Assembly: GCA_001275005.1 (NCBI GenBank)
Contig: JWZX01003168.1
Location: forward strand, 1 to 38,696
DNA: 38,696 nt
Source: Chrysochromulina tobinii
Lineage: Eukaryota
Reading direction: 5' to 3'
Shown: piece after piece, positions 4,393-33,572 of the stretch
How positions within the stretch are numbered: position 1 is the first letter of the stretch
Layout: each line of letters starts with the position of its first letter
The notes under the pieces: generated by a model
What the model was told of the DNA's origin: nothing
What the model saw: only the letters and a program-made list of their open reading frames with translations
The model's database searches: none
Position numbers and translations under genes: made by a program

Positions 4393-7300
4393 ATGATGAG
4401 AACGCAAGTGCTGGCAGCTGGGCTCACGTGCATCGTCGCCGCCATGATCCTCGTGCGCCGTCGTCGACGCCGCCGCACGGCTCGTGGCTTTCACGACAGG
4501 CCTGCAGAGACCGATCTCGTCGAATTGCGGTCACTCTCTCGGGCGTTGGGATGCACGATCATGGCCAAGTGCGAGCACCAGCATCCGGGCGGATCTGTGA
4601 AAGACCGCGCAGCGCACGCGTTGATTCAGGCGGCCATCGAGTCTGGCGAGCTCCAGCCTGGCGGTACAATCGTGCAGGCCACAGGCGGCAACACGGGCAT
4701 TTCTCTGGCCATGATCGCCAAAGCCAAGGGCTACCGATGCCATTTAACGATCCCCGAGAACATCAGCAACGATAAGAAGGAGCTGCTCCGGATCCTGGGG
4801 GCCACCGTCACGGAGTGCCCGTGCGTGCCCTTTGCCGACCCACGCTCCTACTGCTCGCGGGCCCACGCGATCGCCAAGGCCACCAAGGGCGCCGTGTTGC
4901 CCGACCAATTCGAGCACGTCGCCAATGCAAAGGCCCACTATACCACGACGGGACCCGAGCTCTGGCGGCAGTGCGGGCAGGCACTGGACGGCTTCGTATG
5001 TGCGGCCGGCACAGGCGGTACGATTGCTGGCGTCTCGCGCTTCCTCAAGTCGGCCCACAGTGCCTGCGCCACCTTCCTCATCGATCCGACCGGCTCCGGC
5101 CACAAGTGCTTCGTGGAGACCGGACAATTTGCATCGTCCGGTTCGTGTTTCATCGACGGCATTGGGATCAGCCGTCGGACGGCCAACTTTGGCACCGCTG
5201 TCGTGGATGGAGCCTTTCGCGGCGACGATCGCGAGGCGATCGAGATGGCCTACTACCTGCTGCGGAACGAAGGACTGTTTGTTGGACCTTCGGCGGCGCT
5301 CAACGTGGTGGGCGCGGTCAAGCTCGCCCGCAAGCTCGGGCCAGGGAGCCGAGTGGCGACCGTGCTCTGCGACGGCGGCGAACGGTATCGCGCCACCACG
5401 TTCAACGCGGAGTGGCTTGCGAGCAAGGGCCTGACGCCCAAATGCCAGGGGGATGATCTCTCCTTCGTCAAGGAGGACCCACGCCACACCTTTGAGCTGA
5501 GCCACGAGATGTGGTCTCGCGTCATCTCCGATCTCGTGCGCAATCTCCCACGCGAGTGGCGAGGCACCACGTTCAACAACTCGAACCTGCTAGGGCGTGA
5601 AGGCTTCGCGTGCCGGCTGCATGATCTGCTGACGCGCCGAGCCTTCTCCGGCGAGCCGTTGGTCAGCGAGGATCTCGTCGATCTCGGTCAAGCGGAGGAT
5701 TACCTTCGCGTAGCTTCGAACGTCACCACCACGCTCGAGGCCATCCACGCGCGCCAGTCGGGCCTGGGCGTCTCCCGCGTCTTCAGCTTCCCTTCGGCGC
5801 TCCGGATGCCCATCGCGGCCGTCGTGCTCGCCACGGACAGGGCTGCGGCTGTGCGCGTCTACATTGGCGACGGCCCACCGCCGTTCACGCCAGAGCAGGA
5901 GCGAATGCTCGCACACGTCGGATGTGCACTCATCATCTCGCGCGGCGGGCCGCCGGCCACGCGTCAACGAGAGAGGCTGGCCCAGGAGGACGACGACAAG
6001 TCGGTCGTGCTCTGCGTCCCGTCCGCCCTCCCCGACCGAGGCATCTACAACCTGCGGCGGGCGCCTCCGAGCGCCGTCGACGGCATCGTCGGCGACGGCA
6101 TGCTGCTCATTTTGGACGAAAATCGGATCCGGCCTTCCGACATCCTCGTCGTCCGCAAGCGTCTCTGCACGCCGATGACGACGCCGGTCGCCATTCAGCG
6201 GCTCGAGCAGCTCGCATCAGGACGTGTGCGCGTCGCCGCCGACGCCGACGCGCCACCTCCCCAATCGGAGCTTGACGCATTCAACGCCCATCTGCAGGAA
6301 TTGTCGGGCACGAGCGTGGATGCCGACACCCCCCCAGTGTGCTACACCGCGGGCCTCTCGGCGCTCAGTGCGCTCTGGATTGCACTCATCGCCGGCGGCG
6401 GCGCAGACGTAGTCATGAGCTCCACAGCATACGGGGGCAGCTCGCAGGTGACTGACATCCTCGCCGCGCGAGCGCCATCGAAGCTGCGTAAGCACACGTT
6501 TGAGGTGAGCGGCTGCTCGCAGATTGTCGACACGGTGCGCGGCGCGCTCAACGGACTGCTTCAGCGTGCCTCCCACCATGATGGTGGCTCCACGGGATCC
6601 ACAACGGTCCTCCCGAGATCCTCCCGAGATCGAGATCCTCACGAGATCCTGAACGGCTCCACAACGGTCCTCTTCGTCGAAGCGCCCACGAATCCAGATA
6701 TGAAGGTACCCGACCTGCCCACGCTCGCAACGATGCTGGCCCAGCACGCGGCGGCGACAGGCGCTCGTCCGCTGCTGCTCGTCGACACGACGCTGGCTCC
6801 GATGTCGAGAGTGATGGCGAAGGCGAGGAGTGCAGCCCCAGATCTGCCCGTGATGGTACTACTCTCCATGTCCAAGAGCGTCTCGCGCGGGTTGACTACT
6901 GCGGGGGCTCTGGTCGCCAACCACGCCCCTGACGCTGCCGCGCTTCTCAGCCGCGCGCGAGATGTGGGCGAGATGCTCGAGACGATGGCGACCGACGACC
7001 AGATCCGGCGCCTTGTCGACAACCACGTGGGTACGGAGGAGCGTTGCGCGAAGGCGTACCGGGTTGCCATGGCAGTCGGCGCGCACCTGAGGGCGACCGT
7101 GAGAGAACATTGCGGCGCAACCATGGGATTGTCTACCGTGAGCGCCGAGGCTGCGAGTAACGGCTACGCCTCCACAACGATCTCGTTCAATCTGCCGCCC
7201 CCCAAAGGAACGTCGGAGCAGCAAGCGGCTGCTCTCGCGCAACGCTTTGTCGACGAGCTCTGCCTCGACAAGGCTCGCTTCAAGCCTTGCGTGTCATTTG

Positions 7301-19390: not shown

Positions 19391-20092
19391 TCACCACAGC
19401 TGCTGGCGCGGCGTCGAGCCGACGATGTAGGTTTTGGGGTTCTGGGCGCTCCTGAGCTTGAGGGCGGGCGACATGCGCTCTTCGCCTTCAAGCTCTTTAG
19501 CCTGAACAACGGCGGCGGCGATCTCATGCGGCGTCCACCGCCGCGTCTCGCCGTCCCCCCCAAAGTACTCGCGCGCATCCGGCATCTTCCGCCGCAGACA
19601 TTCCTTGGCGCGCGCCTCCATGAACGCAAGCTGCTTCGGGCGCGGGTCGAGCATGGGAAAGCACTGGAAGAGAGTGTGCGAGGGCGGCGCCTCGAGCATC
19701 ATTTTTTGCGCCAAATCGTAGTACGCGTTCGCCGCCTCGAAGTGGCCGAGGTGGTGGCAGCACGTCGCGAGGTTGTGCATGATGCATGCGTGCGTGTCCG
19801 CGTCGATGACGCGCACACCACCTGAGACGCGGCTGGCGGCATCGATGTACGCGAGAGCGTCGATCATCTCCTCGAGAGCGTGCATCCACCATTGCGCCTT
19901 GCCGTAGATGAGGCCATGCGCGAGGCTCTTTTCGAGGGCCTCCTCATTCTTGCCCACGAAGTAGTTGATGCGCGAGACGATGGTGCTCCGCAAGGTCTCC
20001 TCAGTGAAGACTATCGGGCTCTCCTGGATGAGCAACGGCGCCGACGGTGGCTTTATTACGATGTTGAGTTTCGGGGGCGAAGGACGGTCCAT
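19391..20092 (-). CDS. Hypothetical TPR-like helical protein
   Basis: Coding-like ORF from ATG 20092 with a TPR-like segment ACIMHNLATCCHHLGHFEAANAYYDLA. Confidence 0.6.
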   Translation of the reverse strand: MDRPSPPKLNIVIKPPSAPLLIQESPIVFTEETLRSTIVSRINYFVGKNEEALEKSLAHGLIYGKAQWWMHALEEMIDALAYIDAASRVSGGVRVIDADTHACIMHNLATCCHHLGHFEAANAYYDLAQKMMLEAPPSHTLFQCFPMLDPRPKQLAFMEARAKECLRRKMPDAREYFGGDGETRRWTPHEIAAAVVQAKELEGEERMSPALKLRSAQNPKTYIVGSTPRQQLW

Positions 20093-20462
20093 GGAGCCGC
20101 AGCTGAGTGCAGGTACACCGTCTGCCGGTGCCGGGTGGAGGGCTCGCTGCAGGGTGCAGGTGCGCACAAGCTGCACCAAATAAAGTTTTTTGAAAATGTG
20201 TGCGGAGCCTTAGCTCCAAGAGTGTATGGACACCAACGACAGGAGCGCGCCGCTACGGGCGCACACGGCGGGGAGCCGCCAAAAACCCCAAAGGGGTTAG
20301 GGCCAGCGCCGGGGGCAACAGTAGCGCATCGCGTGGTGTGAACAAAGGGGGCGCCGGAACCTCCGAGCCCGCCTTCTCACCCCTTGGCGCGAATCGCAAA
20401 ACATGGCGATCGCATCCTCACGCACCCCGCTCGCACACACGCTCAAGCTCACGCAATAAAAC

Positions 20463-23400
20463 ATGCCGATCACGTTCGCCATTCACTACAAGCTCGCGGC
20501 CATGGGAGCCTCGGCCGACGACACCAAGCGCGACCGTGCGCTGCACCCGGTCTATGAGGCGGCCGGCAGCGCGAAGTTTGATGGATGGCTTCTTCACCCG
20601 CCGCGCGACGGCGAAGTCGACGGCGGCATCGCCGGTGTCCTTCCGGGCACGCTGGCAAAAATTTGCATGGCATTCGTGCAGTGTGGCGACGATATTGTCA
20701 ACGAAAGCGTCGGGGATAATGGCCTCATACTGGCAGTCGCCTGGGAACGCATCCTCACCACCCTCGCCGAGGTGCACGGGGGGGATGGCTCGAAGGCCAT
20801 TTCGCTGGGCTGCCTCTACGAGGACATGGACGCCAAGCTCTCCAAGGCCACGCCGGTACAGCTCGCTCAGCTCACTCTCTACAAGCACGACCTCGGATCG
20901 TCCATCTCGTTGGCGAGTAAGCCTGTGGCCCCGGTACCGAGCACTGACCCAGCGGCGGCTGCGGCCAATGCGGCGGCGCTCCTTGTGCACGCGCAAGCGC
21001 TGGGCAATTGGGAGGGCAACGAGAAGCACCCCTTCACCTGGCTTCGCCTGCTCACGTTTGGCGACCTGCGCGACAACACTACGGGGCGCCTCGGCGCACT
21101 CGGAAGGCTGATGTGCGCCACCCCCACGTGGGTCTCGGACACGACGCGCGGCGAGGCCATATTCCGGCGCACGCTCACGGCCCTCGCCAAAGCCGCGATC
21201 GAGGGCACCGACATCCAGGTCGGCGACGCCGACGACGTGGCGGGCTGCGTGGCCGAAAAGCTGAAGCTCATCGATCTCCCTCGCGCGATGGAGAGCTTCG
21301 GCGGAGCCACGCAGGAGGCGCGCTCTCGCGCGCTCCTCAAGGAGATCAAGGCGATTGTCAACCCCGCCGCGCGGCAGGAACTTCTTCGCGAACGCTTCAT
21401 CGAGGCCATCGACCGGCTGGCGGGCGTACGGGCCCTCGTGGGCATCCGCGCTGGCGGCGGGTGCGACATGGGCAGCTCCGCATGCTTCGGACTTTGCGCG
21501 GAAGTGGCTACTCGGATGGGCCTCTGCCGCTCGGAGGACGAGTTCTCCTGGGCGTCGCTGCGGGCGCTGCGCGACGAGATCGCTCACCTCGACGAGATGC
21601 TCAGCGCCGAGCCATGGGTCCACCGCACGGCGCGCGACCGTGCGGATCGCGTCATCGATTTCCACCGGACGCAAGCGAAGCGGTCGTCCGCCGCGTCGGT
21701 GCTGTACTCTACGCCCGACCGGACCGCGACGGGACGCAGCCCGGACACCGCGCTGACCGCGGCGGAGTCGCGTCTAAGAGGCACCGTGCCCAGACACTTC
21801 CAAGGGGACTTGTCTCAGGCTACTTCCAATACGCAGTGGCTCGCGCTCAAGGCGGCCATCATCGGCCGTCTAGCGTTGGGCGGCAAAGGATGCCACCTGG
21901 ACGCCATGCAGATCGGGGCATCCGGCGTTGCCCTCGACCCGGCTACGAATATGCCCAAGCAGCGCCAATGGTGCCCGCTGATGGCCATGCTCGCCGAGGG
22001 CGCCACGCGTGGCGTGGATGCGGCAACACTCGATCCGGAGCTGCAAGCACTCACCGACGCAGCGCGCGACCGGTGGCCGGAACTGTACGGCCGCACAGCA
22101 GGGCTCCAACTGGCGCTCGATAAGACGACGCTCCCCGAGGAACTGGAGGGCTGGTGCCTGGACGAGCTGGCGAAGGCATTTGCGTCCGCCGACTGGAGCG
22201 CCATCGACCTCGGCGCGGCATTCGAGCAAACGCGGGCACGCATGCGCTGCGAGAAGTTCGAGGCCGGGCCCGCGGACAAGGCGTACACGAACAGGCGCAG
22301 CATCGAAAATGCTCTCAAGGTAGCCGAGCCCATGCTCATGCTGAGAGGCTTCGGCGGCAACGGCAAGGGCACGTTACCCTTCGTCCTCGAGGAGGTGCGC
22401 CAATCATGGGTCCTCTACGGCGGTCAAGGGGCGCACGAGAAAACCCTCGCGAAGCTAGCTTCGGAAGGGCGCGCATACGTGGTCGACACCCTCGCACATT
22501 TTGGTCGCGTACGCCACGCGGCCATCGCAACCAAGAACCCTCTCGCCCCGGACCACGAGCGCACGACCACGGCGGCGGCAGCTCAGCGCTGGGCGCGCCA
22601 CCTGATTAAGCTGCAGGGCGCTCTCAGCCTCGCCAGCTACGCCGAATATTTTGGCGGCGGGGGCGCGGGCGGAGGCGGCGGAGGCGCGAGCGGGCAATCT
22701 GGCGACGGCGAAGACGGCAGCGGCGGCGGTGGCAGCGGCCACGGAGCCGGCGGGAGTGGCAAGGCAGCCAAGCGCCAGCGCAAGGAGCCGAATGGAGATG
22801 CCGCGAGCGACACACGCGGTGTGACGATGTCCCTCAACCTCAGGGCCGGCACCCTCACCATCACCCCCAAGGACGGCAAGCCCAGGACCTACATCACCGC
22901 GCGCATGCGCGAGCGCGCCAAGAACCCTAAGCGATGCTGCTTCAAAGGAATGGCGGCGGCGGCGCTCCAGATGCAAGAGCGGGCATTCTGCGACTTCGAC
23001 CACAAAGAAGGCAGCACAGAACACCAATGGGCGGCAGCTGGCCCAAACCTCAGTCTCTGCCGATCTGACGGCGTGGAGCGCCCGAAGAAGAAGCAAAAAA
23101 CGGGTCACGATGACGACACGGCGACCGGCGCGGGCGGCGACGACGCCGACGACGGCGACGACGACGACGGCGACGAAGGCGACGCCGATGACGAGGGCGA
23201 CGCAGATGACGCAGGCGGCGCTGGAGCGGACACCGGAGCCGGCGCCGGCGACCCACCCGCACCCGGCAAATCCTCGGCTGCCGCGCGCGGCGGCGGGAAA
23301 GGCGGGAAAGGCGGCAAGGGCAGAGGCCGCGGCGGCAAGGGCGGCGGGCGGAGCGGCGGCAAGGGCGGTCGCAAGACTGTCGCGTTCACAGCCGCTGCGA

Positions 23401-24698
23401 CCACGGCGCCCACGGGCGCGTCGGGGGACGCCACCTCCACAACAACCGCGGCAGCCGGCATGCTTGCCGACGTCACTCAGGCGGGCTATTCCGAGGACGG
23501 CGGCATTGTACGCGTCACGGACCCTGTCCTCGTACAAGCGCTCACGCGCCTCAACCCGCCAATCACGACCATCACTATCGGCGACGACAGTGGGCTCCTA
23601 CGCGACGCGTCCAATAGCGCGGGATGGCCCGCTGTTTCCACCTCCACACTGCCGTGCACGAGCGCGCGACCAGGATTCAGCTTCGCGGGCGACGTCCGCG
23701 ATGTCCTTCGCGTCGCTCAATGGCGACGTGCGATCGCCGCTCCTGACTGGCGCCAGCAAGCTGCGCGCATGGGCCTCAGCATGGCGGCGGTCAAGGCTTC
23801 GGACGGCCGCATTTTCGCATGTATGGCCGCGTGGCTGTACCTTTGGTGCACAGCAGCGGCAGCTGTGTGCATCATGCAGCCGGATATCTTCACAGTCGAT
23901 TTCTATGACGCGCCCTTCGTTGCCACATCACCGGACGCGTGGGGCGACAACGGCAGCGACAGGACGCTGCTTTTCTGGCGTGGCTCCGCGATGCCAGTGC
24001 CGCCCGACGAGAGTGGCAGCACTGCGGCGCCCGTCCTCGAGCGCGCGCAAGCAGGGGGGCAGGCGTGGGCCCCGTCATCCTCGAAACTCGCACACGGTAT
24101 CGCCACGCAGCTCGTGCCCGACGGCAGCGGACCCGACCTTCGGTTCGCCGTCGAGATCGAGCGACTCGCAGCCGCCATGTACTCGGTAGGGCTCCCTATC
24201 CCGCCATGGTACAGCCGTGAGGACGGCGGGCCGCCCGAGCGGGCGGAGCGCGCCTACATGCACGAGCGCGGGCTCGGCGATGGACGACGATTGGACGGCC
24301 GTACCGTCCCTCTGCTGGCACGACGGGATCTCGGCGATCCCGCTTGGCGTGCCGGCATCAACGAGCGCCTCGCCGACACCCTTATGCACTCGAGCATTCC
24401 AGTGGTGTCACGGCGCGGGCACGCGCTCGCCGATGCGTACAGAGCGCTCCGGCGGACCGACGCTGAGCGCGCGCTACGCAAAAGGGCGGCGCGCGCACAA
24501 CGCCGCCTGGAACACGATCGGCTGCGTCCACGCCGACACGCCCGCAACGAATTCGGTCGCGGTCGTGCCGGGACGCATCGTCCACGGCGTCGTCATGCTG
24601 CTATTCCCTGGCGCCTCGCACGCAGCGGCGACCGTGGCAGGTCGCCCGCTGCCTTGCGCGCACGGCGCCACGTCCGAATCGCGCAAACTCATCACTAG
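20463..24698 (+). CDS. Retroelement ORF1: Gag-like region, Cys/His cluster, acidic and KGG/RGG tracts, degenerate phage-type C5 cytosine methyltransferase-like domain
   Basis: 1411-aa ORF upstream of pol. CC...CDFDH...H at 22935-23024, acidic and GGKGG tracts, MTase-like block at 23562-24113. The Gag call is positional. Confidence 0.75.
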   Translation: MPITFAIHYKLAAMGASADDTKRDRALHPVYEAAGSAKFDGWLLHPPRDGEVDGGIAGVLPGTLAKICMAFVQCGDDIVNESVGDNGLILAVAWERILTTLAEVHGGDGSKAISLGCLYEDMDAKLSKATPVQLAQLTLYKHDLGSSISLASKPVAPVPSTDPAAAAANAAALLVHAQALGNWEGNEKHPFTWLRLLTFGDLRDNTTGRLGALGRLMCATPTWVSDTTRGEAIFRRTLTALAKAAIEGTDIQVGDADDVAGCVAEKLKLIDLPRAMESFGGATQEARSRALLKEIKAIVNPAARQELLRERFIEAIDRLAGVRALVGIRAGGGCDMGSSACFGLCAEVATRMGLCRSEDEFSWASLRALRDEIAHLDEMLSAEPWVHRTARDRADRVIDFHRTQAKRSSAASVLYSTPDRTATGRSPDTALTAAESRLRGTVPRHFQGDLSQATSNTQWLALKAAIIGRLALGGKGCHLDAMQIGASGVALDPATNMPKQRQWCPLMAMLAEGATRGVDAATLDPELQALTDAARDRWPELYGRTAGLQLALDKTTLPEELEGWCLDELAKAFASADWSAIDLGAAFEQTRARMRCEKFEAGPADKAYTNRRSIENALKVAEPMLMLRGFGGNGKGTLPFVLEEVRQSWVLYGGQGAHEKTLAKLASEGRAYVVDTLAHFGRVRHAAIATKNPLAPDHERTTTAAAAQRWARHLIKLQGALSLASYAEYFGGGGAGGGGGGASGQSGDGEDGSGGGGSGHGAGGSGKAAKRQRKEPNGDAASDTRGVTMSLNLRAGTLTITPKDGKPRTYITARMRERAKNPKRCCFKGMAAAALQMQERAFCDFDHKEGSTEHQWAAAGPNLSLCRSDGVERPKKKQKTGHDDDTATGAGGDDADDGDDDDGDEGDADDEGDADDAGGAGADTGAGAGDPPAPGKSSAAARGGGKGGKGGKGRGRGGKGGGRSGGKGGRKTVAFTAAATTAPTGASGDATSTTTAAAGMLADVTQAGYSEDGGIVRVTDPVLVQALTRLNPPITTITIGDDSGLLRDASNSAGWPAVSTSTLPCTSARPGFSFAGDVRDVLRVAQWRRAIAAPDWRQQAARMGLSMAAVKASDGRIFACMAAWLYLWCTAAAAVCIMQPDIFTVDFYDAPFVATSPDAWGDNGSDRTLLFWRGSAMPVPPDESGSTAAPVLERAQAGGQAWAPSSSKLAHGIATQLVPDGSGPDLRFAVEIERLAAAMYSVGLPIPPWYSREDGGPPERAERAYMHERGLGDGRRLDGRTVPLLARRDLGDPAWRAGINERLADTLMHSSIPVVSRRGHALADAYRALRRTDAERALRKRAARAQRRLEHDRLRPRRHARNEFGRGRAGTHRPRRRHAAIPWRLARSGDRGRSPAALRARRHVRIAQTHH

Positions 24699-27600
24699 CG
24701 CCGCCGAGGCGATTGGAGACGTGCTCATCGACGCGGGCGCCGCCCGCGACGCGCACGCTGTACGGGCTCGGAGCGCTCTCGCCGCCATCCTCACACGGGG
24801 AGACGTGTCGCTGGCCATCGTGGTCACACTCGTCCCGCCGCAAGTGGATATCAGCTCAGAGGCGGTCAGCGCAGGCTACTCATGGCAGCGCGCGGCGGCG
24901 GCGGCCGGCTCTCCCCGGCACGCTCTTGCGTGCATTGCGGAGCAATACCTGCTACGCTGGGTTACCGCGTCGAGAGATATCTGCATCGCGGGCGTCCGCA
25001 CCGGGGTCGCCAAGGCGCAGCCTACGGCGCGTGCGCTCGATCCCAATCGCCTGAAGAGCGTCGACATGGATGCCGCTACGCGCGAAGAGGCAAGCGCGCT
25101 ACTCTGTGTGGCAGACGGGCTGCTCGAGGCCGCCGCACGCGAACCGCACCTTGCTGACGCGCTCTTATGCTGGCGCGAGAAGGTCACCACCGCGCGCGAC
25201 TTCGCACCTCCGGCAATCGTCGCCGCGGCTGGGCGGGAGCCGCCCGCCTCTCTGGCGAGCAAGCCCTTCAAGCACCGCTGCACTATCCCGAGCACGACGC
25301 CGGTCCCAGTGCAATGGAAGGCGCCGCGGTGGCCCGTTGGCGTGCCAGCACCGGCGACCTTGCTCGACACGTACACGCCGACGGCCCGCGCCGAAGTGCG
25401 CGCGCAGCTGGAAGCGGTCGCTCGGTGGAACGCGACGCGGGTAGGGGGCACTATGGCGCCCCGCCCCGTCCACCGCAGCTGGAGTGACAAAGCGCGCCTG
25501 CCATGGTTCCAAGGCCGCGTGCTATGGGAACGCGACGGCAAATGCGCGCTCGTCGACGGGCGTCTTCCCGCCACGCGCGTTCGCATGCACCGCGAGGCGG
25601 CGCTCTGGCTGCTGCGCGACTACCCGCACAGGCAACTTGTGTCTTTCCTGGTACATGGGGTCACGCTACACGACGACCTCCCTCTTCAGACGTCCATCGC
25701 CGCCAACCTTCTCTCGTTCTACGACGTGCGTGGCGGACCTGACGGCGTAGCCGAAGAAATGCACGGGCTCAAGGAGCGCGGCTGGTATCTCAGCAGCGCG
25801 GGCCTAATTGCGACATCCGCGGCGGTCGCGTCCACAGCAGCGCAGAAGGCGGACACGGCGGCGATGGCGCCAGTGCAGCCCGCGGCGGAATTGACCTCAC
25901 TGCGAGAGGCGCGTCTGATGACGTCGCCGGCCAGGATAAACCCGCGCGGCGCGGTAGCGCGCAAGGATTTAGGGCCGCCCCGAGGAGTAGCCGAGCTCGG
26001 TCACCCACGGCGCGAAACGGTCACGACCGACACCGGCGAGATCGTCACCTCAGTCAACGAGGCCACCAGCACGGAGCGCAGCGTGGCCACCGGCGACGAT
26101 TTCTGGGCGCGGCCGGAGATCAAGCCAAGGCCGAGCGATCTCGTGCTCAACCTGCTCATCCTTCGGGCCATGGGCAATTGCCTGCGGCCGGCCTTCGGCG
26201 GCACGGCACCGGCCATCCTGCTCATCCTCTTCGACTACAAATACTTCTTCCACTCGCTGGCGTACATGGCAGGCGAGGTGTGGAAAACCGGATGCGCCGT
26301 GCCCGCGCGGGCAGCACCGGGCGTGGCGCACCGTAAGCGCTACGACGTCCTTGCGGAGCTCGTCCTAGCCATGGGGTGGACGCAGGCGAGCAAGGTAGCC
26401 CAGGACTTTGGCAACGCCCTTATGTGGCTGCTACTTCGCGCCTTGGACAAGGCGCTCGCCCCGCACGTTGCCGAACTTCGCGAGGCGAGCAAGGCCTTCG
26501 ACTCGATGTGGAAGGGCAGGCTGGCGCTCCAACATGACGACTATGGTACACAAGCGCGCGTCGTCACCGCGTTGCAATACACTGACGACAGCGTCAAGGC
26601 GTGCCTGGGAGCAACGGCCACCGTCACCACCATTGTTGAATTTTGTCGCATCATTGGGCCTCGCTTCTACGCCGGGCCCGACGCACACGAAGCCGCTCGT
26701 GGCACGGTCACGCGATCCGTCGTTGACGAATACGGTGTCGCGCTGCAGGCGTGGCGGCAGCTCGCGCCCAAAGGCAGCGTACGCGCCCACGGGCGAGACG
26801 AGCCCGCGCCGGCCCATGCTAGCACCGTCCCCATTGGAAGGGGAACCGCCGCTGGCAACCCATTTCCAGTCACCGCAACGCAAGACGCGACTCGGGTGAC
26901 CACGGGCTTCGCCTGCTTTCTCGCCAGCGTGCCAGACACATCAGCGCGCGCGGTCGGAGCCCTTCTGAACTTACAAGTCGCCCAGGGGCATGACGAGCGG
27001 CTCGCAGGGCAGCTCCAGGCATATGCCGATCAGCTCGCCTCTCGCGTGCGCGCGGGAGAGCACCTCGCTCTTCAATGCCCGGGCTGCCGCTGTCCCTTGC
27101 AACCGGGGCGATGCCACGCCACGGTTTTCGCGGCGGCGATCGCACAGCGCTGTTCGATAGCACTGGAGGAGGCGGCAGGTCCGCCGACGGACCCAGTTAT
27201 CGCCCCGCCACGGGAGGCCCTCGGGCTTGATCTCGAGGCGGCCAAGATGCACAAATGGCATCTCGGCGGCAGCGGCATCTGGACGGGAGTCGGCGTGAGC
27301 GCAACATTCCTCGTCATTTGGGTCCCGCAGGCGAAAGCGGTGCGATGCCTGGTCGAGATCGCCGACGTGCTCGACGGGCGCTGCGAGGTGGCTCGGTACC
27401 GCAGCCTTCATGGGGCCCTCGCCGACCTCGTCCTCCCCACTGGTGGTGATTGGTACCGCATGCAGGGCATGGCGGTGCCGCTGCGGAGCGACCAGGAGCT
27501 CGGCGAAGGCCCCAACGTTCTTGTGCGCGAGAGACCGCAACTGTGGAAACGACTCAAGGCCTGGCAGACTCTTCTGGCCAACAGCCCTGGATCACCCATG

Positions 27601-30600
27601 ACCGCCACACTCCCAGCGGCGCATTCAGCCGTGCGCACCGACATCGTCACCTGGGACATTGGCGGTGATGCCGCCAAAGATGGCGTGCCCAAACAGGGCC
27701 TAGGCGCATGGTTCTATGGAGTCTGGTGGTGCGCGCCACTTGGGGACTGGCCTGCGCTCGCAGACGCGCACATCACGTGCCTCGAGCTCGTCGAGGTAGG
27801 GCTCGGCGTCGTCATGACGGCCAGATGGCTCGCCGGGGCGAAGCGCGTACGGCTCCGGGCTGACGCGATGGCAGCCTTCCTCACGCTACGTGCGCGGCGG
27901 GATGACGGCTCGCTCGCGCGCGGCGCACAAGCAGCGGAGCTCGTCGCGGCGCACGAGGTCATCATGCAGCAGCCAGAGTGGAAACGGCTACATGACGGTC
28001 GGTGCGAGATTCTCACCGAGCAAACGTTCGGCGAGAGCATGCTGCTGCACGACGCAGCTAGCCGCAACAACCCCGAGCTCATCCGAGACGTGAGCGCTGC
28101 CCTAGGCGTCGTCCCGAAACGGATCGAGCTCTCGGCACGTGCTCGGGCATACCTGCAGGACGTGTCGAACGCGCTCCTCGACACGCGGCGAGGCGCCGCA
28201 CAGCACGCACCGATGCACGCCGCCGCACTCGAACACGGCGCGGCCGGCAATGGTTCAGGGCCGCGCACGCCCTTCTCTCAGGCATGGCCTGGAGCAGCTG
28301 CCTCATCAGCTCGCGCGATGCAACAGCAGATGCAAGCCGACGAGGGCACGGTAGGCGCGCCTCGGCCGTGCGATGAGCAGCTGTGGCTTTTTATACTTTT
28401 CTACGAATCCTACCTCCTCGCCCTCGACGACGAGGCGCTCGCTGGCTTACCGTCTCCACCGTCAAGCGACTACTGGGATTCGCCCCACTCGATTGACAGC
28501 TACAACAATTGGGAACCACCAGACCTCGATCCGCCTGACGAGTTGTCGCCCGGCGAGTGGTTCCCAACCGGCCTCCATCACGCGTGGTCACCTGGCGACG
28601 ACCCGTACCCCGATTCGCCGCAGGGCTCTGGCGGCGACACCGGCGCGGTCGCGGACGCCGTCGACACCGGCGTGACCTGCGCGGCGCGAGATTCACACGT
28701 ACCCATGCACGCCGCTGCTCTCGAGCACGGCGCGGCTGCCAACGGCACTGGCCCGCGCACGCCCTTCGCTCAGGCTTGGCCGGGTGCGCCTGCCTGCTTG
28801 CTGCGCGCAATGCAACGGCAGACGGGCGACGGCGCATCCGACGCATTCACAGCTGGCGCGGCGCAGCACGCCCGGCAGGCGCACGCCGAAGGGCGTCGCC
28901 ACGGGTGCGCGATGGCACCGGCGCCAGCGCTCGGGGCACCATCGGGAGCACCTGACCTGACCGACAGAGTCCTCGCCCGGCGCACCAATCGGAGGCAGGC
29001 CCAGAGCCCGCCCGAGTGTGACGACGACGAGCACGCGACCGCCTTCTCGGCCGCCCTGGCTCGCTGCGCCTCAGGACGCGCACGTTTTCGCGGTCCAGGC
29101 GCCGACCCTGTCGCGCCTTCCCGCGCCCTCGTCACGGCTCGCGCGGTGGCGCCCCCGCTCCGGGCGGTTGAGATCGCGCGGAACGCGCTGCTTACAACGG
29201 CGGCCGCGCCCGCCATGCCAGTGGCGGCACGGCGTGGAGCGGCCGAGCTCGAAGAATCGCAGCGCATGCTCATAGAGCGCAGCATCAAAGACGCTCGGTG
29301 CGACGAGGACGGCCTCGGCATCAGCGGCGCGAGCGACGAGCTCCTTCGAGGGCTGCTCACGGCGGCAATGCTCGCGGTCGAGAAGCGCTTTGCGCCCTCC
29401 ACTCGCGGGCAGGACCGATCCTACTGGAGAATGTGGGCCGAGTGGTGCGATAGCATCGGCACGCCGCCTCTCCGCACCAATTCCGCCGCCAACGACGGGC
29501 GCATCGAACATCTACACCGGCGCGAGGTTGCCCTGGCTCTGGGCGCTTTCATGACCTGGGCGGCGGAGGCGGAGCAACGCGGCTACAAGACTGAGAGCAT
29601 GCTCAACCGGCTGCGCGGCGTGGCGCGGCGCCACTGGGCGGTCACGATTCGATTCGTGTCCCTCGCGCTCGTCGTGCAGGCGGCGCAGGGGCTTGTGCGC
29701 GAGCACATCGATGCCCACGGCGCTGACGCGCTGCGTCGACGCTCCAAGGAGCCACTTGAGACGGCGGAAATCTTCGCGCTCCTCAATCTCCCGAAGGGCA
29801 CCCTCGTAGCCCACGGGTCCTCGTGCGTGGTAGTCGGCGACAACCTCGAATGGCAGGGCGTGGTCGTCTTCATCAACTTGTACTGCACGGGCGGCTGGCG
29901 CAAGGAGGCCATCGCGCTGGGGCCCAAAGAGGTCTTCGGGGGGCGCAAGCTCTCCTTAAGCGAGGTCACGTATCGCATCGGAGGCACCCTCCACCGGGAA
30001 CCGACCGTCGCGATCCTCCAGCAGATCACGTGGGGCGACATGTGCTACATAAACCCGGTGCCTTGCAAGAATGACCCGGACAACTCGAAATTCGGGAGCT
30101 CGCCGGTACCGTCGCGCTACCACGCGACGCAGCCCATCTGCCTGGTGCGCGAGCTCGCCAAATACGAGATCATGCGCATGCGCGCCGACCCCATCGCCTC
30201 GTCTCGGACGCCCCGCAAGGAGATGCCGCTCGTGCTGTCGCCCGCCGGCCGCTCCTGGGCCAAGGCCGACCTCGGCAAGTTCTTCGACGGGCTCATTCGA
30301 CACGTGTGCTCTGAGGAACGCGCCAAACAGCTCTCGGTACACAGCTTCCGCGTGTGGCTCGCCTGCGCGCTGCTCGCAGCAGGGGCCACGCCGGAGCAGA
30401 TTATGCTGATGGTGCGATGGTCGTCGGAAGCCGCGCGGAAACTTTACGCGAGGCTCGCGATGACGACACAATGCTCGCTCCAGGCCGGCGCCGTCGACGC
30501 CAGCTTCGATTCGATCCGAGCGCACACGCTCCTTGACGCGTCCGCGGCGGCCGCTGTCAGCGACGAAGCGCGCGCCGCCGCAGAGGCGCTGCAGGCGACC

Positions 30601-30813
30601 ACCTCCCTGATCGACGCCGTCACGGTCGGCGCAGGAGCACACGTCGCCGCAGCCAAAGACCTCCGGCGCACATGCAACATCGACGACGATGACGTCTTTG
30701 GACTGCTCGACGAGGCGAGCCATGCGCTCGAGGGCCTCGCCGTGAGCGCGGACGCTGCCTTCACGGAGACGGCAGCGACCGAGCCGCAGGCCGAGTCCGA
30801 CGACGAACCGTGA
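24217..30813 (+). CDS. Retroelement ORF2: reverse transcriptase (with DUF4326-like insertion), RNase H and tyrosine recombinase in a single frame
   Basis: RT: LFDYKYFFH (D 26233), LAMGW (26371), YTDD (26578-26589). RNase H: GDAA (27667), LEL (27784), RAD (27862), DAASR (28051). Recombinase: APST...W, GWR (29899), K (30067), HSFR (30340-30351), RW, Y (30445). The true start is probably reached from ORF1. Confidence 0.9.
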   Translation: MRTAGRPSGRSAPTCTSAGSAMDDDWTAVPSLCWHDGISAIPLGVPASTSASPTPLCTRAFQWCHGAGTRSPMRTERSGGPTLSARYAKGRRAHNAAWNTIGCVHADTPATNSVAVVPGRIVHGVVMLLFPGASHAAATVAGRPLPCAHGATSESRKLITSAAEAIGDVLIDAGAARDAHAVRARSALAAILTRGDVSLAIVVTLVPPQVDISSEAVSAGYSWQRAAAAAGSPRHALACIAEQYLLRWVTASRDICIAGVRTGVAKAQPTARALDPNRLKSVDMDAATREEASALLCVADGLLEAAAREPHLADALLCWREKVTTARDFAPPAIVAAAGREPPASLASKPFKHRCTIPSTTPVPVQWKAPRWPVGVPAPATLLDTYTPTARAEVRAQLEAVARWNATRVGGTMAPRPVHRSWSDKARLPWFQGRVLWERDGKCALVDGRLPATRVRMHREAALWLLRDYPHRQLVSFLVHGVTLHDDLPLQTSIAANLLSFYDVRGGPDGVAEEMHGLKERGWYLSSAGLIATSAAVASTAAQKADTAAMAPVQPAAELTSLREARLMTSPARINPRGAVARKDLGPPRGVAELGHPRRETVTTDTGEIVTSVNEATSTERSVATGDDFWARPEIKPRPSDLVLNLLILRAMGNCLRPAFGGTAPAILLILFDYKYFFHSLAYMAGEVWKTGCAVPARAAPGVAHRKRYDVLAELVLAMGWTQASKVAQDFGNALMWLLLRALDKALAPHVAELREASKAFDSMWKGRLALQHDDYGTQARVVTALQYTDDSVKACLGATATVTTIVEFCRIIGPRFYAGPDAHEAARGTVTRSVVDEYGVALQAWRQLAPKGSVRAHGRDEPAPAHASTVPIGRGTAAGNPFPVTATQDATRVTTGFACFLASVPDTSARAVGALLNLQVAQGHDERLAGQLQAYADQLASRVRAGEHLALQCPGCRCPLQPGRCHATVFAAAIAQRCSIALEEAAGPPTDPVIAPPREALGLDLEAAKMHKWHLGGSGIWTGVGVSATFLVIWVPQAKAVRCLVEIADVLDGRCEVARYRSLHGALADLVLPTGGDWYRMQGMAVPLRSDQELGEGPNVLVRERPQLWKRLKAWQTLLANSPGSPMTATLPAAHSAVRTDIVTWDIGGDAAKDGVPKQGLGAWFYGVWWCAPLGDWPALADAHITCLELVEVGLGVVMTARWLAGAKRVRLRADAMAAFLTLRARRDDGSLARGAQAAELVAAHEVIMQQPEWKRLHDGRCEILTEQTFGESMLLHDAASRNNPELIRDVSAALGVVPKRIELSARARAYLQDVSNALLDTRRGAAQHAPMHAAALEHGAAGNGSGPRTPFSQAWPGAAASSARAMQQQMQADEGTVGAPRPCDEQLWLFILFYESYLLALDDEALAGLPSPPSSDYWDSPHSIDSYNNWEPPDLDPPDELSPGEWFPTGLHHAWSPGDDPYPDSPQGSGGDTGAVADAVDTGVTCAARDSHVPMHAAALEHGAAANGTGPRTPFAQAWPGAPACLLRAMQRQTGDGASDAFTAGAAQHARQAHAEGRRHGCAMAPAPALGAPSGAPDLTDRVLARRTNRRQAQSPPECDDDEHATAFSAALARCASGRARFRGPGADPVAPSRALVTARAVAPPLRAVEIARNALLTTAAAPAMPVAARRGAAELEESQRMLIERSIKDARCDEDGLGISGASDELLRGLLTAAMLAVEKRFAPSTRGQDRSYWRMWAEWCDSIGTPPLRTNSAANDGRIEHLHRREVALALGAFMTWAAEAEQRGYKTESMLNRLRGVARRHWAVTIRFVSLALVVQAAQGLVREHIDAHGADALRRRSKEPLETAEIFALLNLPKGTLVAHGSSCVVVGDNLEWQGVVVFINLYCTGGWRKEAIALGPKEVFGGRKLSLSEVTYRIGGTLHREPTVAILQQITWGDMCYINPVPCKNDPDNSKFGSSPVPSRYHATQPICLVRELAKYEIMRMRADPIASSRTPRKEMPLVLSPAGRSWAKADLGKFFDGLIRHVCSEERAKQLSVHSFRVWLACALLAAGATPEQIMLMVRWSSEAARKLYARLAMTTQCSLQAGAVDASFDSIRAHTLLDASAAAAVSDEARAAAEALQATTSLIDAVTVGAGAHVAAAKDLRRTCNIDDDDVFGLLDEASHALEGLAVSADAAFTETAATEPQAESDDEP
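28204..28824 (+). repeat. Two diverged copies of an approximately 42-codon motif in ORF2 (about 28204-28329 and 28696-28821)
   Basis: HAPMHAAALEHGAAGNGSGPRTPFSQAWPG versus HVPMHAAALEHGAAANGTGPRTPFAQAWPG. Confidence 0.95.
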
Positions 30814-31444
30814 GTCCCGCCCCGAAACGGGCTGTGACGCACGGTCACATAGCAGTGCGAGGCGAGCACTACGGTGCCAGCCCGAGCACGGATGCACGAA
30901 CGCACGGCCATCGCAGTGCGCGGCGAGCACCACGGTGCCTGCCCAGTAACCTCCGCTGCGGCGGAGGCAACCAGCAGACGGCGCGAAACCCACACGGGTC
31001 GCGGCAGTCGGCAGAGCACGGCAGAAGCAGTGCGGGGTATCACGCAGACGGCGCGGAACCTTCGGGTCGCGGCAGTCGGCTCAGCACGGCAGAGGCAGTG
31101 CGGGGTATCGTGCAGAGGCACGTACAGGAACGCCAGTGGCGTGACCAACCCACCCACCCGAGAGGGACATACCATAGGGAGGCGACAGATCTGCGCTCAG
31201 CCGCGAGGGACAGTAGCCAGAACGACCGAGATGATCGCCGAGATACACTATCTCGGAGTTTATCTCGGCGAGTTCTGGCGAAGTGCCCAGGGCACGAGAT
31301 GCAACCGAGGATCGGTCGGACCCAATTACCGAGTATGTCCCTATAGCATAGTAAGATGCTAATCCTGTGTACCTATCCACAGGTCACTATTCACAGAGCT
31401 TGAGCGCTCCAAACGAAACAACCATACCAGCCCCGCGGGGCTAA
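30814..31444 (+). other. Structured 3' non-coding region of the retroelement (tandem duplications and a hairpin array)
   Basis: Duplications at 30838/30901 and 30974/31044. Six ACGG(C/T)...GCAGT stems, several UNCG/GNRA-capped hairpins, and 10-11 bp perfect inverted repeats. Confidence 0.75.
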
Positions 31445-31583
31445 CCATAAATACCATATTCTGAACATGAACGCATCAGCCCTGCGAGGAAGGCGACCCA
31501 TTCCCACGCAGCAACACCGCTTTTCAGCTTTTCACGCGTCTTGGCGCGCAACGGTTGTGAATGTGCCTCAACTTTTGACGAAC

Positions 31584-33572
31584 ATGCCTGCAACCATGCG
31601 TCGGACCTGTTTCCGGTCAGCCAGCCCGGCGAGCCTACCGCCTGTGCTGCCACAGGTCACCACCGCCGCCCTGCAGGGTGCACTGCAGGCCAAAGAGAAA
31701 CGCGCCCGGGAGCAACGTGGCAAGGTGACAGATGCGGAAGAGGTAGAAGAGGCCACTTGGGCCGCGCCCAAGGAAATCACTCCAATCGAGACGTTGCTTC
31801 TCCTCCCGGAGAGCGCGGCGCGCGACGATACGCACGAGCTGGTCGTTAACAGGCATGTGCTCGCAGGCTGGGTCGAGCAAGAGTCGCCGTGCTGTGCTGC
31901 AGCAAGCCTCGCCTGCATGTTCAACGCCCTTCGGCGGCATGAAGCCAAAGATGGCAGCGCCATGAAGCCGGCGCCAGTGCTCGCAGCCTTTCGAGATTTA
32001 TTTCTGGGAGAGCTCGCCGACAAGCGTGTGATGACGGCACGTGCACTGAGCCTGCCGGAGGCGAGCGGCGCTGCCAGTCTTGGCGTGCTGCTGCGCTGCG
32101 TAGAGCATCGGCAGGCTCGAAAAGGGAAGCCGATCACGGGGCGCAAGGAGAGGGCGGTCAGCACGGCGGAGCTACGCACGACACTCCGGGAGGTGGTCCT
32201 CGAGGGCCCCGACCCTGCCGCGCGCGAGCTGCTACTCCCAGCCGAGCAACGGCCCTCAGAGAGCCATGAGGCGATGCTGTGGCAGCGCCTGCGCTCCTGC
32301 TACAATGTGAATGCTCCCGCCAATCTCACCGCGGTGGATGCGCCGTCTGCCGCCCCAGTGACGGATACTCCAGCGACGATAGACGCTGCAGCGGCGTTGC
32401 CAGTAGCCAGCACCAGCAGCGCACCCGCTGCCACGTCGGTGGCAACGGGCAGCAGCGGCAGCAGCGGCAGCAGCGGCAGCAGCGGCAGCAGCAGCGGCAG
32501 CAGCGGCAGCAGCAGCGGCAGCAGCGGCAGCAGCGGCAGCAGCGGCAGCTGCGGCAGCTGCAGCGGCAGCGGTAGCGGCAGTGGTGCCGCCGGTGGCCCG
32601 ACGGATGGCGTGAGAATGTACCTGCTCAAGCGCGCCCCGTTCGAAAAGTTCGGCGTGCGCGTGGGCTGTGGATACCCGAATGGACCCCCGCTCGTGACGG
32701 GTCTCTCCGGGGTCGCGACGCGCAGCAAGCTCAAAGTGGGCGACATCATCCAGCGAATGGATGGTAAGGAGGTTGCGAGCGCGGAGGCGGCGACTGTCGC
32801 CTTCGCCCGCGCGGGCACGAGTATCTCCTTGCATGTGCAGCGGCCAGAGGGCGGCGCAGACGCGCCGCTCGAGGGCCGCGCCGCAGAGGCCGACGCGGCC
32901 CTGATCAAGCTCCTCCACAGCCATGTCGGCTTCTGTAAGCTCACTTGCGACGCGCCGTCAACAGCGGCGATCGGCAATGCGCATCTGCTGCGCGCGAGCA
33001 CGGTGCTCAACGGCGAGACAGAGAAGTGCATGCGCGTCTACGGCAGCCGCTTCTGTGGAATCAACCGCGACGACGACGCGGTGCTGATCAGTGAGACCGA
33101 CTCGGCTGAGGCACAAGAGAGCCAATTCCACCGGCTCTGGACGGCTTTCATCAACGAGGATACGGCGCTCATCGCACACTTTTGGAACCATTACGCGCCC
33201 ATCTACGCGCTCCGAAAGTACCACGACCGGACCAGCGGCGAGATGCAACTAGAGCTGCTCACTGCGAAGCCGGCGCAGCGCCCGTCGCGCTGGATCACGT
33301 GGGAAGCGATGCGCGGATGGCTCCTGCAGTGGAATGGGTACGGCATCTTGAGGTTTGACCGGATCGAGGCGAGGCGAGGTGAGAGCCCGTGGCGCCAGGG
33401 CATGAAAGCTGCGCCTGGTGTGAGGACCCTTTGGGGCCCCAGCAGTGTGAGGACCCCGGACTCGGACTCGGACCGGCTCGACGGCCAGAGCGCTATTTTG
33501 GAGAGCCCGTGCCCGGCACCAGAAGTGGACCAGACGCCGGCCAGACGCCGGTCGGACGCCGAACTACGGTAG
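31584..33572 (+). CDS. Papain-fold (C39/BIVM-like) putative cysteine peptidase with an inserted Gly/Ser tract and PDZ domain
   Basis: EQESPCCAAASLA (Q..C), HFWNHY (His), LLTAKPAQRPSRWITW. PDZ-like KFGVRV...LKVGDIIQRMDG...ISLHVQR at 32610-32843. Alternative ATG at 31467. Confidence 0.6.
   Translation: MPATMRRTCFRSASPASLPPVLPQVTTAALQGALQAKEKRAREQRGKVTDAEEVEEATWAAPKEITPIETLLLLPESAARDDTHELVVNRHVLAGWVEQESPCCAAASLACMFNALRRHEAKDGSAMKPAPVLAAFRDLFLGELADKRVMTARALSLPEASGAASLGVLLRCVEHRQARKGKPITGRKERAVSTAELRTTLREVVLEGPDPAARELLLPAEQRPSESHEAMLWQRLRSCYNVNAPANLTAVDAPSAAPVTDTPATIDAAAALPVASTSSAPAATSVATGSSGSSGSSGSSGSSSGSSGSSSGSSGSSGSSGSCGSCSGSGSGSGAAGGPTDGVRMYLLKRAPFEKFGVRVGCGYPNGPPLVTGLSGVATRSKLKVGDIIQRMDGKEVASAEAATVAFARAGTSISLHVQRPEGGADAPLEGRAAEADAALIKLLHSHVGFCKLTCDAPSTAAIGNAHLLRASTVLNGETEKCMRVYGSRFCGINRDDDAVLISETDSAEAQESQFHRLWTAFINEDTALIAHFWNHYAPIYALRKYHDRTSGEMQLELLTAKPAQRPSRWITWEAMRGWLLQWNGYGILRFDRIEARRGESPWRQGMKAAPGVRTLWGPSSVRTPDSDSDRLDGQSAILESPCPAPEVDQTPARRRSDAELR
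32448..32583 (+). repeat. Coding (GGC AGC AGC)n microsatellite giving a Gly-Ser-Ser tract
   Basis: Directly visible tandem ggcagcagc units. Confidence 0.95.

Follow-up and report, generated by a model that had tools for sequence, protein, structure and literature searches.

A portable 25-residue peptide at polyprotein domain borders of a haptophyte tyrosine-recombinase retrotransposon and of unrelated mobile elements: a candidate separation signal

Retrotransposons equipped with a tyrosine recombinase usually express this enzyme from an open reading frame (ORF) of its own, whereas the elements considered here fuse everything together. This fusion, combined with the failure to find a protease, turns the way in which the parts separate into a question testable with a 25-codon insert. 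Here, we addressed whether a duplicated peptide motif located between RNase H and recombinase of one such element may act as a processing signal, as the original prediction had suggested, and which other functions could account for its conservation. The element resides in a contig of Chrysochromulina tobinii (JWZX01003168.1), analysed over its 38,696 nucleotides and referred to below as the window.

The architecture of the element is given in Table 1. Coding regions for reverse transcriptase (RT), RNase H and tyrosine recombinase are all present, which places it in the DIRS order on the basis of catalytic motifs, invariant RNase H acids and weak integrase matches, while the three-ORF layout of this order is not seen: the window has two ORFs, and six full-length relatives have a single ORF of 3299–3477 aa encoding everything. 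The approximate ends of the element were estimated from the relative L003, where an inverted junction matching window positions 31126–31427 is joined to 20198–20262. Neither inverted terminal repeats nor an internal complementary region were found in the window; L003, the 5′ end of which is missing, contains, at its positions 5233–6858, tandem repeats of 127 nt, a perfect inverted repeat of 216 nt and the joined element ends copied in inverted orientation, an arrangement absent from the 3′ end of the window. Split direct repeats of the Ngaro/PAT type (A1 ... B1 A2 B2) were not detected in the window either, where no 5′–3′ direct repeat and only local 3′ tandem repeats are present, with collapse in the assembly as a possible reason. 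RT was assigned by motifs that we take to be typical of this enzyme, with no match in Pfam or PDB, and RNase H was likewise assigned by motifs with no Pfam match, its residues E629, D655 and D718 being invariant in 8 aligned elements. The recombinase gave weak matches to Pfam Phage_integrase (E 0.069–0.28), and its relative P0100 a better one (E 0.0036). The DUF4326 domain also occurs, at a different position, in a distant family designated B (P0019). Domain names within ORF1 are presumed likenesses, a Pfam search of this ORF giving no match; around 23560–23900, in what we take to be a cytosine-methyltransferase-like region with no library match, the window has P-D where P0019 and P0101 have P-P-C, and judged by these residues the region is likely inactive. 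The overlap between ORF1 and ORF2 involves a +1 shift near 24484–24492, at CGC AAA AGG G, which is common to the related loci L001 and L002 and may be either a programmed shift or a subfamily lesion; the frame of ORF2 is likewise open in both loci. A neighbouring 722-aa frame (31404–33572) contains a Gly/Ser repeat (32448–32581) and a weak PDZ match (E 0.017). No protease was found in the element by profile searches, and the earlier remark that none is evident is thereby tested weakly, because the same searches also missed RT and RNase H; the model of the unassigned N-terminal part of ORF2 has pLDDT 42.9, with all Foldseek matches at E >0.4.

Table 1. Features of the element within the window (dN and dS are given relative to L003)
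Feature	Coordinates	Strand	Remarks
Tyrosine-recombinase (DIRS-order) retrotransposon, ends approximate	20198..31427	+	ends inferred from relative L003
ORF1: Gag-like region, Cys/His motif, methyltransferase-like region (presumed likenesses)	20463..24698	+	overlaps ORF2
ORF2, 2207 aa stop to stop: RT, RNase H, motif, acidic module, motif, recombinase	24190..30813	+	one frame
Reverse transcriptase core, YTDD at 26578–26589	26125..26610	+	catalytic motifs; dN 0.11
DUF4326 domain, inserted just after the RT YTDD motif	26815..27132	+	Pfam PF14216, E 2.9e-06, above cut-off
RNase H domain	27637..28179	+	acidic catalytic residues; dN 0.08
Motif copy 1, 25-aa core	28210..28284 (extended 28204–28329)	+	dN 0.057, dS 0.82
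Optional acidic, aromatic, Pro-rich module	28372..28677	+	conserved core 28381–28524, core dN 0.11
Motif copy 2, 25-aa core	28702..28776 (extended 28696–28821)	+	dN 0.038, dS 0.67
Fast-evolving linker (internal control)	28783..29034	+	36% identity, dN 0.72
Tyrosine recombinase	29239..30462	+	R, K, HxxR, W, Y motifs at 29893–30456

The two copies of the motif, the first of which begins 52 aa past the D..SR motif of RNase H, lie between RNase H and recombinase exactly as had been proposed, in a shared frame of ORF2 and with an offset of 492 nt (164 codons). The peptides quoted earlier were found verbatim, and codon comparison reproduced the reported 13 synonymous differences over 42 codons, the remainder being 20 identical codons and 9 replacements. 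The copies differ by 27 bases, 17 of them at third positions (NG86 dN 0.12, dS 0.85), and random placement of 27 differences yields on average 4.5 synonymous codons (p = 0.0002, 20,000 draws). Constraint is confined to the 25-aa core, while the final ~17 codons of the repeat drift. Between the copies a spacer of 139 aa, which completes the repeat unit of 164 aa, is indeed acidic, aromatic and Pro-rich, with 24 D/E against 3 K/R, 17 Pro and 14 aromatic residues. An alternative reading frame as the cause of conservation was rejected, since no other frame of the five maintains a conserved peptide free of stops across the four copies for which DNA was available, and the antisense frame sharing third positions is interrupted by a stop in each of the two window copies; a structured RNA element was rejected as well, with no unusual fold in the four copies (z +0.16, +0.29, -0.37 and -0.57) and no Rfam match within 20000–31600. 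Removal of the motif at the RNA level was also considered, as the public gene model of C. tobinii (P0021) places at ~28088–28624 an intron that would take out copy 1 together with the acidic core. Contigs from RNA libraries are unspliced over copy 1 and the module, with pieces covering 28114–28477 and 28319–28576; these are of low depth and may represent DNA carry-over. No splice joints were present among contigs of 4 runs, and splicing out is not supported within the limits of contigs, which cannot prove absence.

A metagenome scan yielded at least three loci, of which two share 98.5% identity with the window. Relative to L003 the recombinase has dN 0.05–0.10 and both motif copies are as conserved as the enzymes, unlike the adjoining linker, all these values coming from one diverged pair because two of the three metagenome loci are near-identical to the window. 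Segment 28100–29000 has no differences from L001 and L002 over 900 nt despite ~1.5% overall divergence, which may reflect mosaic assembly or recent homogenisation, and contigs of the DNA runs contain a higher-depth variant of 28531–28714. Indels of the acidic module in related contigs preserve the frame. Family searches, retaining 15 of 7985 and 11 of 7996 scored candidates, provided 19 proteins that span from the end of RNase H to the start of the recombinase, all 19 with the motif, a proportion biased upward because the set was retrieved using the motif region. The acidic module accompanies the duplicated state without exception, being present in 11/11 double-copy and 0/8 single-copy proteins of this set. 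Trees were built without the near-duplicates P0005 and P0008, truncated P0015 and fragment P0023, and P0020, P0024 and P0025 were too short for the RT–RNase H tree. Double and single states are interleaved, with at least three changes on each tree (RT–RNase H and recombinase), and a single clade of double-copy proteins was rejected on the first (11 rows, AU p 0.0007) and not on the second (14 rows, p 0.12). The single copy of P0017 has a left flank of copy-1 type and a right flank of copy-2 type, and from this junction it looks like a crossover product of the two copies. Because states interleave and P0017 has this appearance, the duplication is best seen as a bracket around cargo gained and lost by recombination, the similar DNA copies possibly serving as crossover points for whatever lies between them. 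In full family polyproteins of 3300 aa the motif occupies one place only and is absent between Gag and RT. The acidic module is also present (66–110 bits) in the distant family B, represented by P0018, P0019, P0022 (two tandem modules) and P0028, where the same domains are fused and no scoring motif occurs. After RNase H these four proteins have their own conserved 22-aa stretch ending with P-F-A-H at the position of the motif, and after the acidic module a short stretch resembling the motif start, with a profile score that is not significant; both are possibly divergent or split versions of the motif. The conserved aromatic-acidic core of the module suggests a protein-binding effector as its candidate function.

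Judged from the sequences collected, the motif is more general than the duplicated pair, being tied to an optional acidic module and common to other classes of elements. Comparison of the region profile with 1.84 billion representatives gave 15 matches, ten of which have the motif and fall outside both acidic-module families, and a profile of the motif only retained 34 of 7992 scored candidates. Altogether 69 of 115 proteins are carriers, many of them near-identical cluster mates, with 101 copies, 52 of which are distinct; after masking of the motif, 24 representative proteins fall into 12 groups without BLAST links. The advice to look for the motif at domain boundaries of related elements proved fruitful: in relatives its position goes with the RNase H boundary, and in unrelated elements with borders between domains. 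In the distant recombinase elements P0046, P0051, P0053 and P0054 it lies past the D..SR motif of RNase H at distances, in ascending order, of 48, 51, 120 and 131 aa (51–53 aa in the family), and in P0038 manual reading placed it after RNase H of a recombinase element. Sixteen distant copies are identical to copy 2 at 14–19 of 25 positions, while the neighbouring enzymes are 24–33% identical. In the Copia polyprotein P0040 a SET domain is flanked by a copy on either side, ahead of Pol_BBD (protease-like) and rve (integrase) domains; in P0031 the motif precedes a LINE-endonuclease-like domain (PDB E 0.02–0.11), in P0030 (twice) and P0037 it follows a DUF927-like helicase region known from an ESM Atlas lead only, NUDIX polyproteins have up to three copies, and in other proteins, one of them named Prymnesium polylepis, it stands before SET domains. 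Only two carriers have eukaryote names, both haptophytes. Beyond these, no relatives were detected in four scans of viral contigs or, by alignment, in prokaryote genomes, no match to the motif in phage and plasmid records, and no usable match for the repeat region in ESM Atlas; six matches of a degenerate pattern in prokaryote genomes lack the first half of the motif, two of them with stops, and were read as chance. P0035, P0036 and P0037 contain a second, degenerate conserved stretch like the C-terminal half of the motif (4–8 bits) and share Pro-rich PSAPPSPP segments.

Some carriers hold known separation signals besides the motif. RLRGG occurs in 3/23 non-redundant carriers against 0.057 expected and the 2A octamer in 1/23 against 0.0006 expected, both counts being chosen post hoc; since RLRGG of P0036, situated 20 aa ahead of the stop in a place that homologs do not conserve, may be due to chance, two cases remain (p ~0.002, calculated by hand). 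In P0051 a cysteine-rich acidic stretch, missing from the 60%-identical relative P0054, is enclosed by the motif on one side and RLRGG on the other. The class-B-like 2A peptide and the RLRGG sites resembling a ubiquitin tail, all in polyproteins of algal-type mobile elements, are located at P0036 residues 190–205, P0039 705 and P0051 291; no paper was found in a literature search combining LRLRGG with retrotransposon. Where the ORF ends right after the motif (groups of P0039, P0041 and P0083), the motif has decayed with its first half persisting, whereas in P0032, the ORF of which continues, it is intact, although such terminal decay may represent only one or two events.

Within the motif, Asn, Gly three places on and F/Y are invariant in 52/52 variants, Gly follows Asn in 51/52 and Pro precedes F/Y in 49/52. 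The peptide has no predicted fold of its own (pLDDT 59.9) and no Foldseek match. An Ankyrin repeat was dismissed (only E 0.54 to a DARPin, no Pfam match, no helix pair predicted), as was Ser/Thr self-acylation, for the candidate position may be occupied by A, T, S, V, I or C, and an internal start at the motif Met is disfavoured by Leu in 7/52. A further alternative, implied by the earlier comparison with 2A peptides, is a divergent 2A/StopGo signal with skipping at the G-P bond. This junction is present in 43/52 variants, and one carrier has the motif right before a LINE-like endonuclease, where other LINEs have 2A according to PMC3708506. Nevertheless, P is replaced by K in 5 and by A in 4 of the 52 variants, the residue before Gly is A, T, S, V, I or C and Pro in none of the 52, so that P-G-P never occurs, and conservation runs 6 residues downstream of the junction; we regard skipping at G-P as very improbable, and the 2A analogy of the original prediction was not borne out. 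A ribosome might also be paused or partly terminated by the motif without restart, lowering the dose of downstream domains (recombinase, integrase, endonuclease) or keeping the RNA for cis-preference. Such an effect accords with a tunnel-sized conserved block followed by a free position and with the usual location upstream of enzymes whose dose matters, but two or three serial copies would strongly reduce an essential recombinase and the motif is also found both before and after cargo domains such as SET, which makes pausing unlikely.

It is equally necessary to consider that duplication is merely a by-product of insertion of the acidic module, the repeat being retained because its DNA homology permits swapping, and the peptide having no function. 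Interleaving of the double and single states, the rejection of one double origin, though on the RT–RNase H tree only, and the mixed flanks of P0017 all agree with swapping; yet silent sites have diverged freely between the motif DNA copies (dS 0.46–1.2) while the peptide was kept, and it is conserved across unrelated proteins. DNA homology thus explains gain and loss of the copies and not retention of their sequence, and as a sole cause it is largely refuted, its probability being quite low. More serious is the idea of a non-cleaved short linear docking motif, widely borrowed, whose binding to a host factor would serve localisation, packaging or translation and which would gain avidity from a second copy. 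Location in disordered linkers without a fold, conservation of the whole block with no obvious scissile bond, copy number ranging from 1 to 3 and persistence of the first half at protein ends all argue for docking. The first ten positions also loosely match the spacing of PAM2, presumably the ligand of poly(A)-binding protein, with the key aromatic residue absent; PAM2 itself was rejected because His or Leu replaces the conserved Phe and 12 motif copies fall into no Pfam family at E up to 10, which likewise counts against docking in general. Docking is further opposed by cargo bracketed on both sides in two element classes (the window and P0040), by cargo bounded in P0051 by the motif together with RLRGG, by decay at C-termini, where docking should still function, and by the fact that the SET protein of Prymnesium was the only named host protein found to have the motif. 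We consider docking the main contender, possible though less likely than separation.

The same bracketing, the mixed boundary of P0051, the presence of RLRGG and class-B-like 2A sites among carriers and the decay where the ORF ends after the motif favour separation over docking. The link of the motif with the RNase H boundary and with other domain borders made a processing signal the leading reading, so that this part of the original prediction gained support. On evidence that is comparative throughout, we would give about even chances to the motif being a portable 25-residue polyprotein-separation cassette shared by unrelated mobile elements. Against it stand the absence of the motif from the Gag–RT border and family B, which does without a scoring copy, and, for a StopGo-like variant in particular, the lack of a conserved residue after the block. 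As described DIRS-order elements generally have three ORFs, a way to free the recombinase would be needed if it works separately. According to this proposal a single motif would free the recombinase from RT–RNase H, and two copies would release the acidic module as a piece of 164 aa, the size anticipated earlier and given by the repeat offset provided that cutting occurs at equivalent bonds of the two copies. Being context-independent, unfolded and of tunnel length, and occurring in elements with and without a recognisable protease, the motif would have to act alone or via a host machine. The break may take place during translation, with the nascent peptide in the ribosome exit tunnel, and near the P-F-A end rather than at G-P; ribosome-dependent release at this point is a tentative suggestion, cutting by a host protease a somewhat fainter one, and self-cleavage at the invariant Asn-Gly is improbable.

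Should the motif separate proteins by itself, its chemistry, whether recoding or self-cleavage, would be new, and it could join 2A as a tool for co-expression; a docking motif would instead identify a host factor exploited by many algal mobile elements. Its presence in DIRS-order, Copia, LINE-like and helicase elements points to dependence on a shared host machine and to exchange of cassettes between classes. A doubtful extension is that, besides 2A and with a sequence unrelated to it, there is another class of peptides that separate proteins autonomously, passed around by algal retrotransposons and DNA elements and used to release as free proteins the cargo (acidic module, SET, NUDIX) placed between two copies. 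A literature search found no paper with the motif peptides or on self-cleavage of haptophyte polyproteins, though an earlier mention may exist in Repbase or in supplementary lists of 2A peptides.

Comparison with known systems delineates the position of the motif. To our knowledge, it has no sequence match among ribosome arrest peptides or self-cleaving domains; eukaryotic arrest peptides and Asn-dependent self-cleaving domains resemble it in a size of ~25 residues or an invariant Asn, the self-cleaving domains being folded, whereas the motif peptide gave no confident fold. Ubiquitin-tail RLRGG di-glycine sites in polyproteins, cut by deubiquitinase-type proteases (PMC9741609), are similar as short borrowed separation signals that co-occur with the motif and bound cargo with it in P0051, but the motif, at five times their length, lacks a di-glycine and mimics no host protein that we found. 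DIRS-order elements generally have three long, often overlapping ORFs (PMC6681497), a single-ORF layout being reported for two TATE copies (PMC6681497, PMC8547959). The element of the window shares with DIRS1-like, PAT and Ngaro elements the order of Gag-like region, RT/RNase H and recombinase and the methyltransferase-like region, and its relative L003 adds the inverted repeat and a copy of the end-to-end junction; it differs in the recombinase fused in frame to RT–RNase H (in six relatives to Gag too), in DUF4326 inside RT and in the motif and acidic module within the linker. 2A peptides are 18–22 aa long. The 2A/StopGo peptides of RNA viruses and APE-type non-LTR retrotransposons (PMC3708506, PMC12338488, PMC12846837) have the core octamer (D/G/C/N)(V/I)ExNPGP or listed rare variants and a defined A-site residue (PMC12846837), and their activity requires PGP in both class A and class B (PMC12338488). 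Since both the octamer with its listed variants and PGP are missing, the motif falls outside this class, differing also in G-P that is not invariant, in conservation on both sides of this junction and in its length of 25 aa. What it shares with 2A, as a peptide of only candidate activity, is being short, portable, located at polyprotein domain borders and of about exit-tunnel length, with an endonuclease-like domain downstream in one carrier and a class-B-like 2A present in another carrier.
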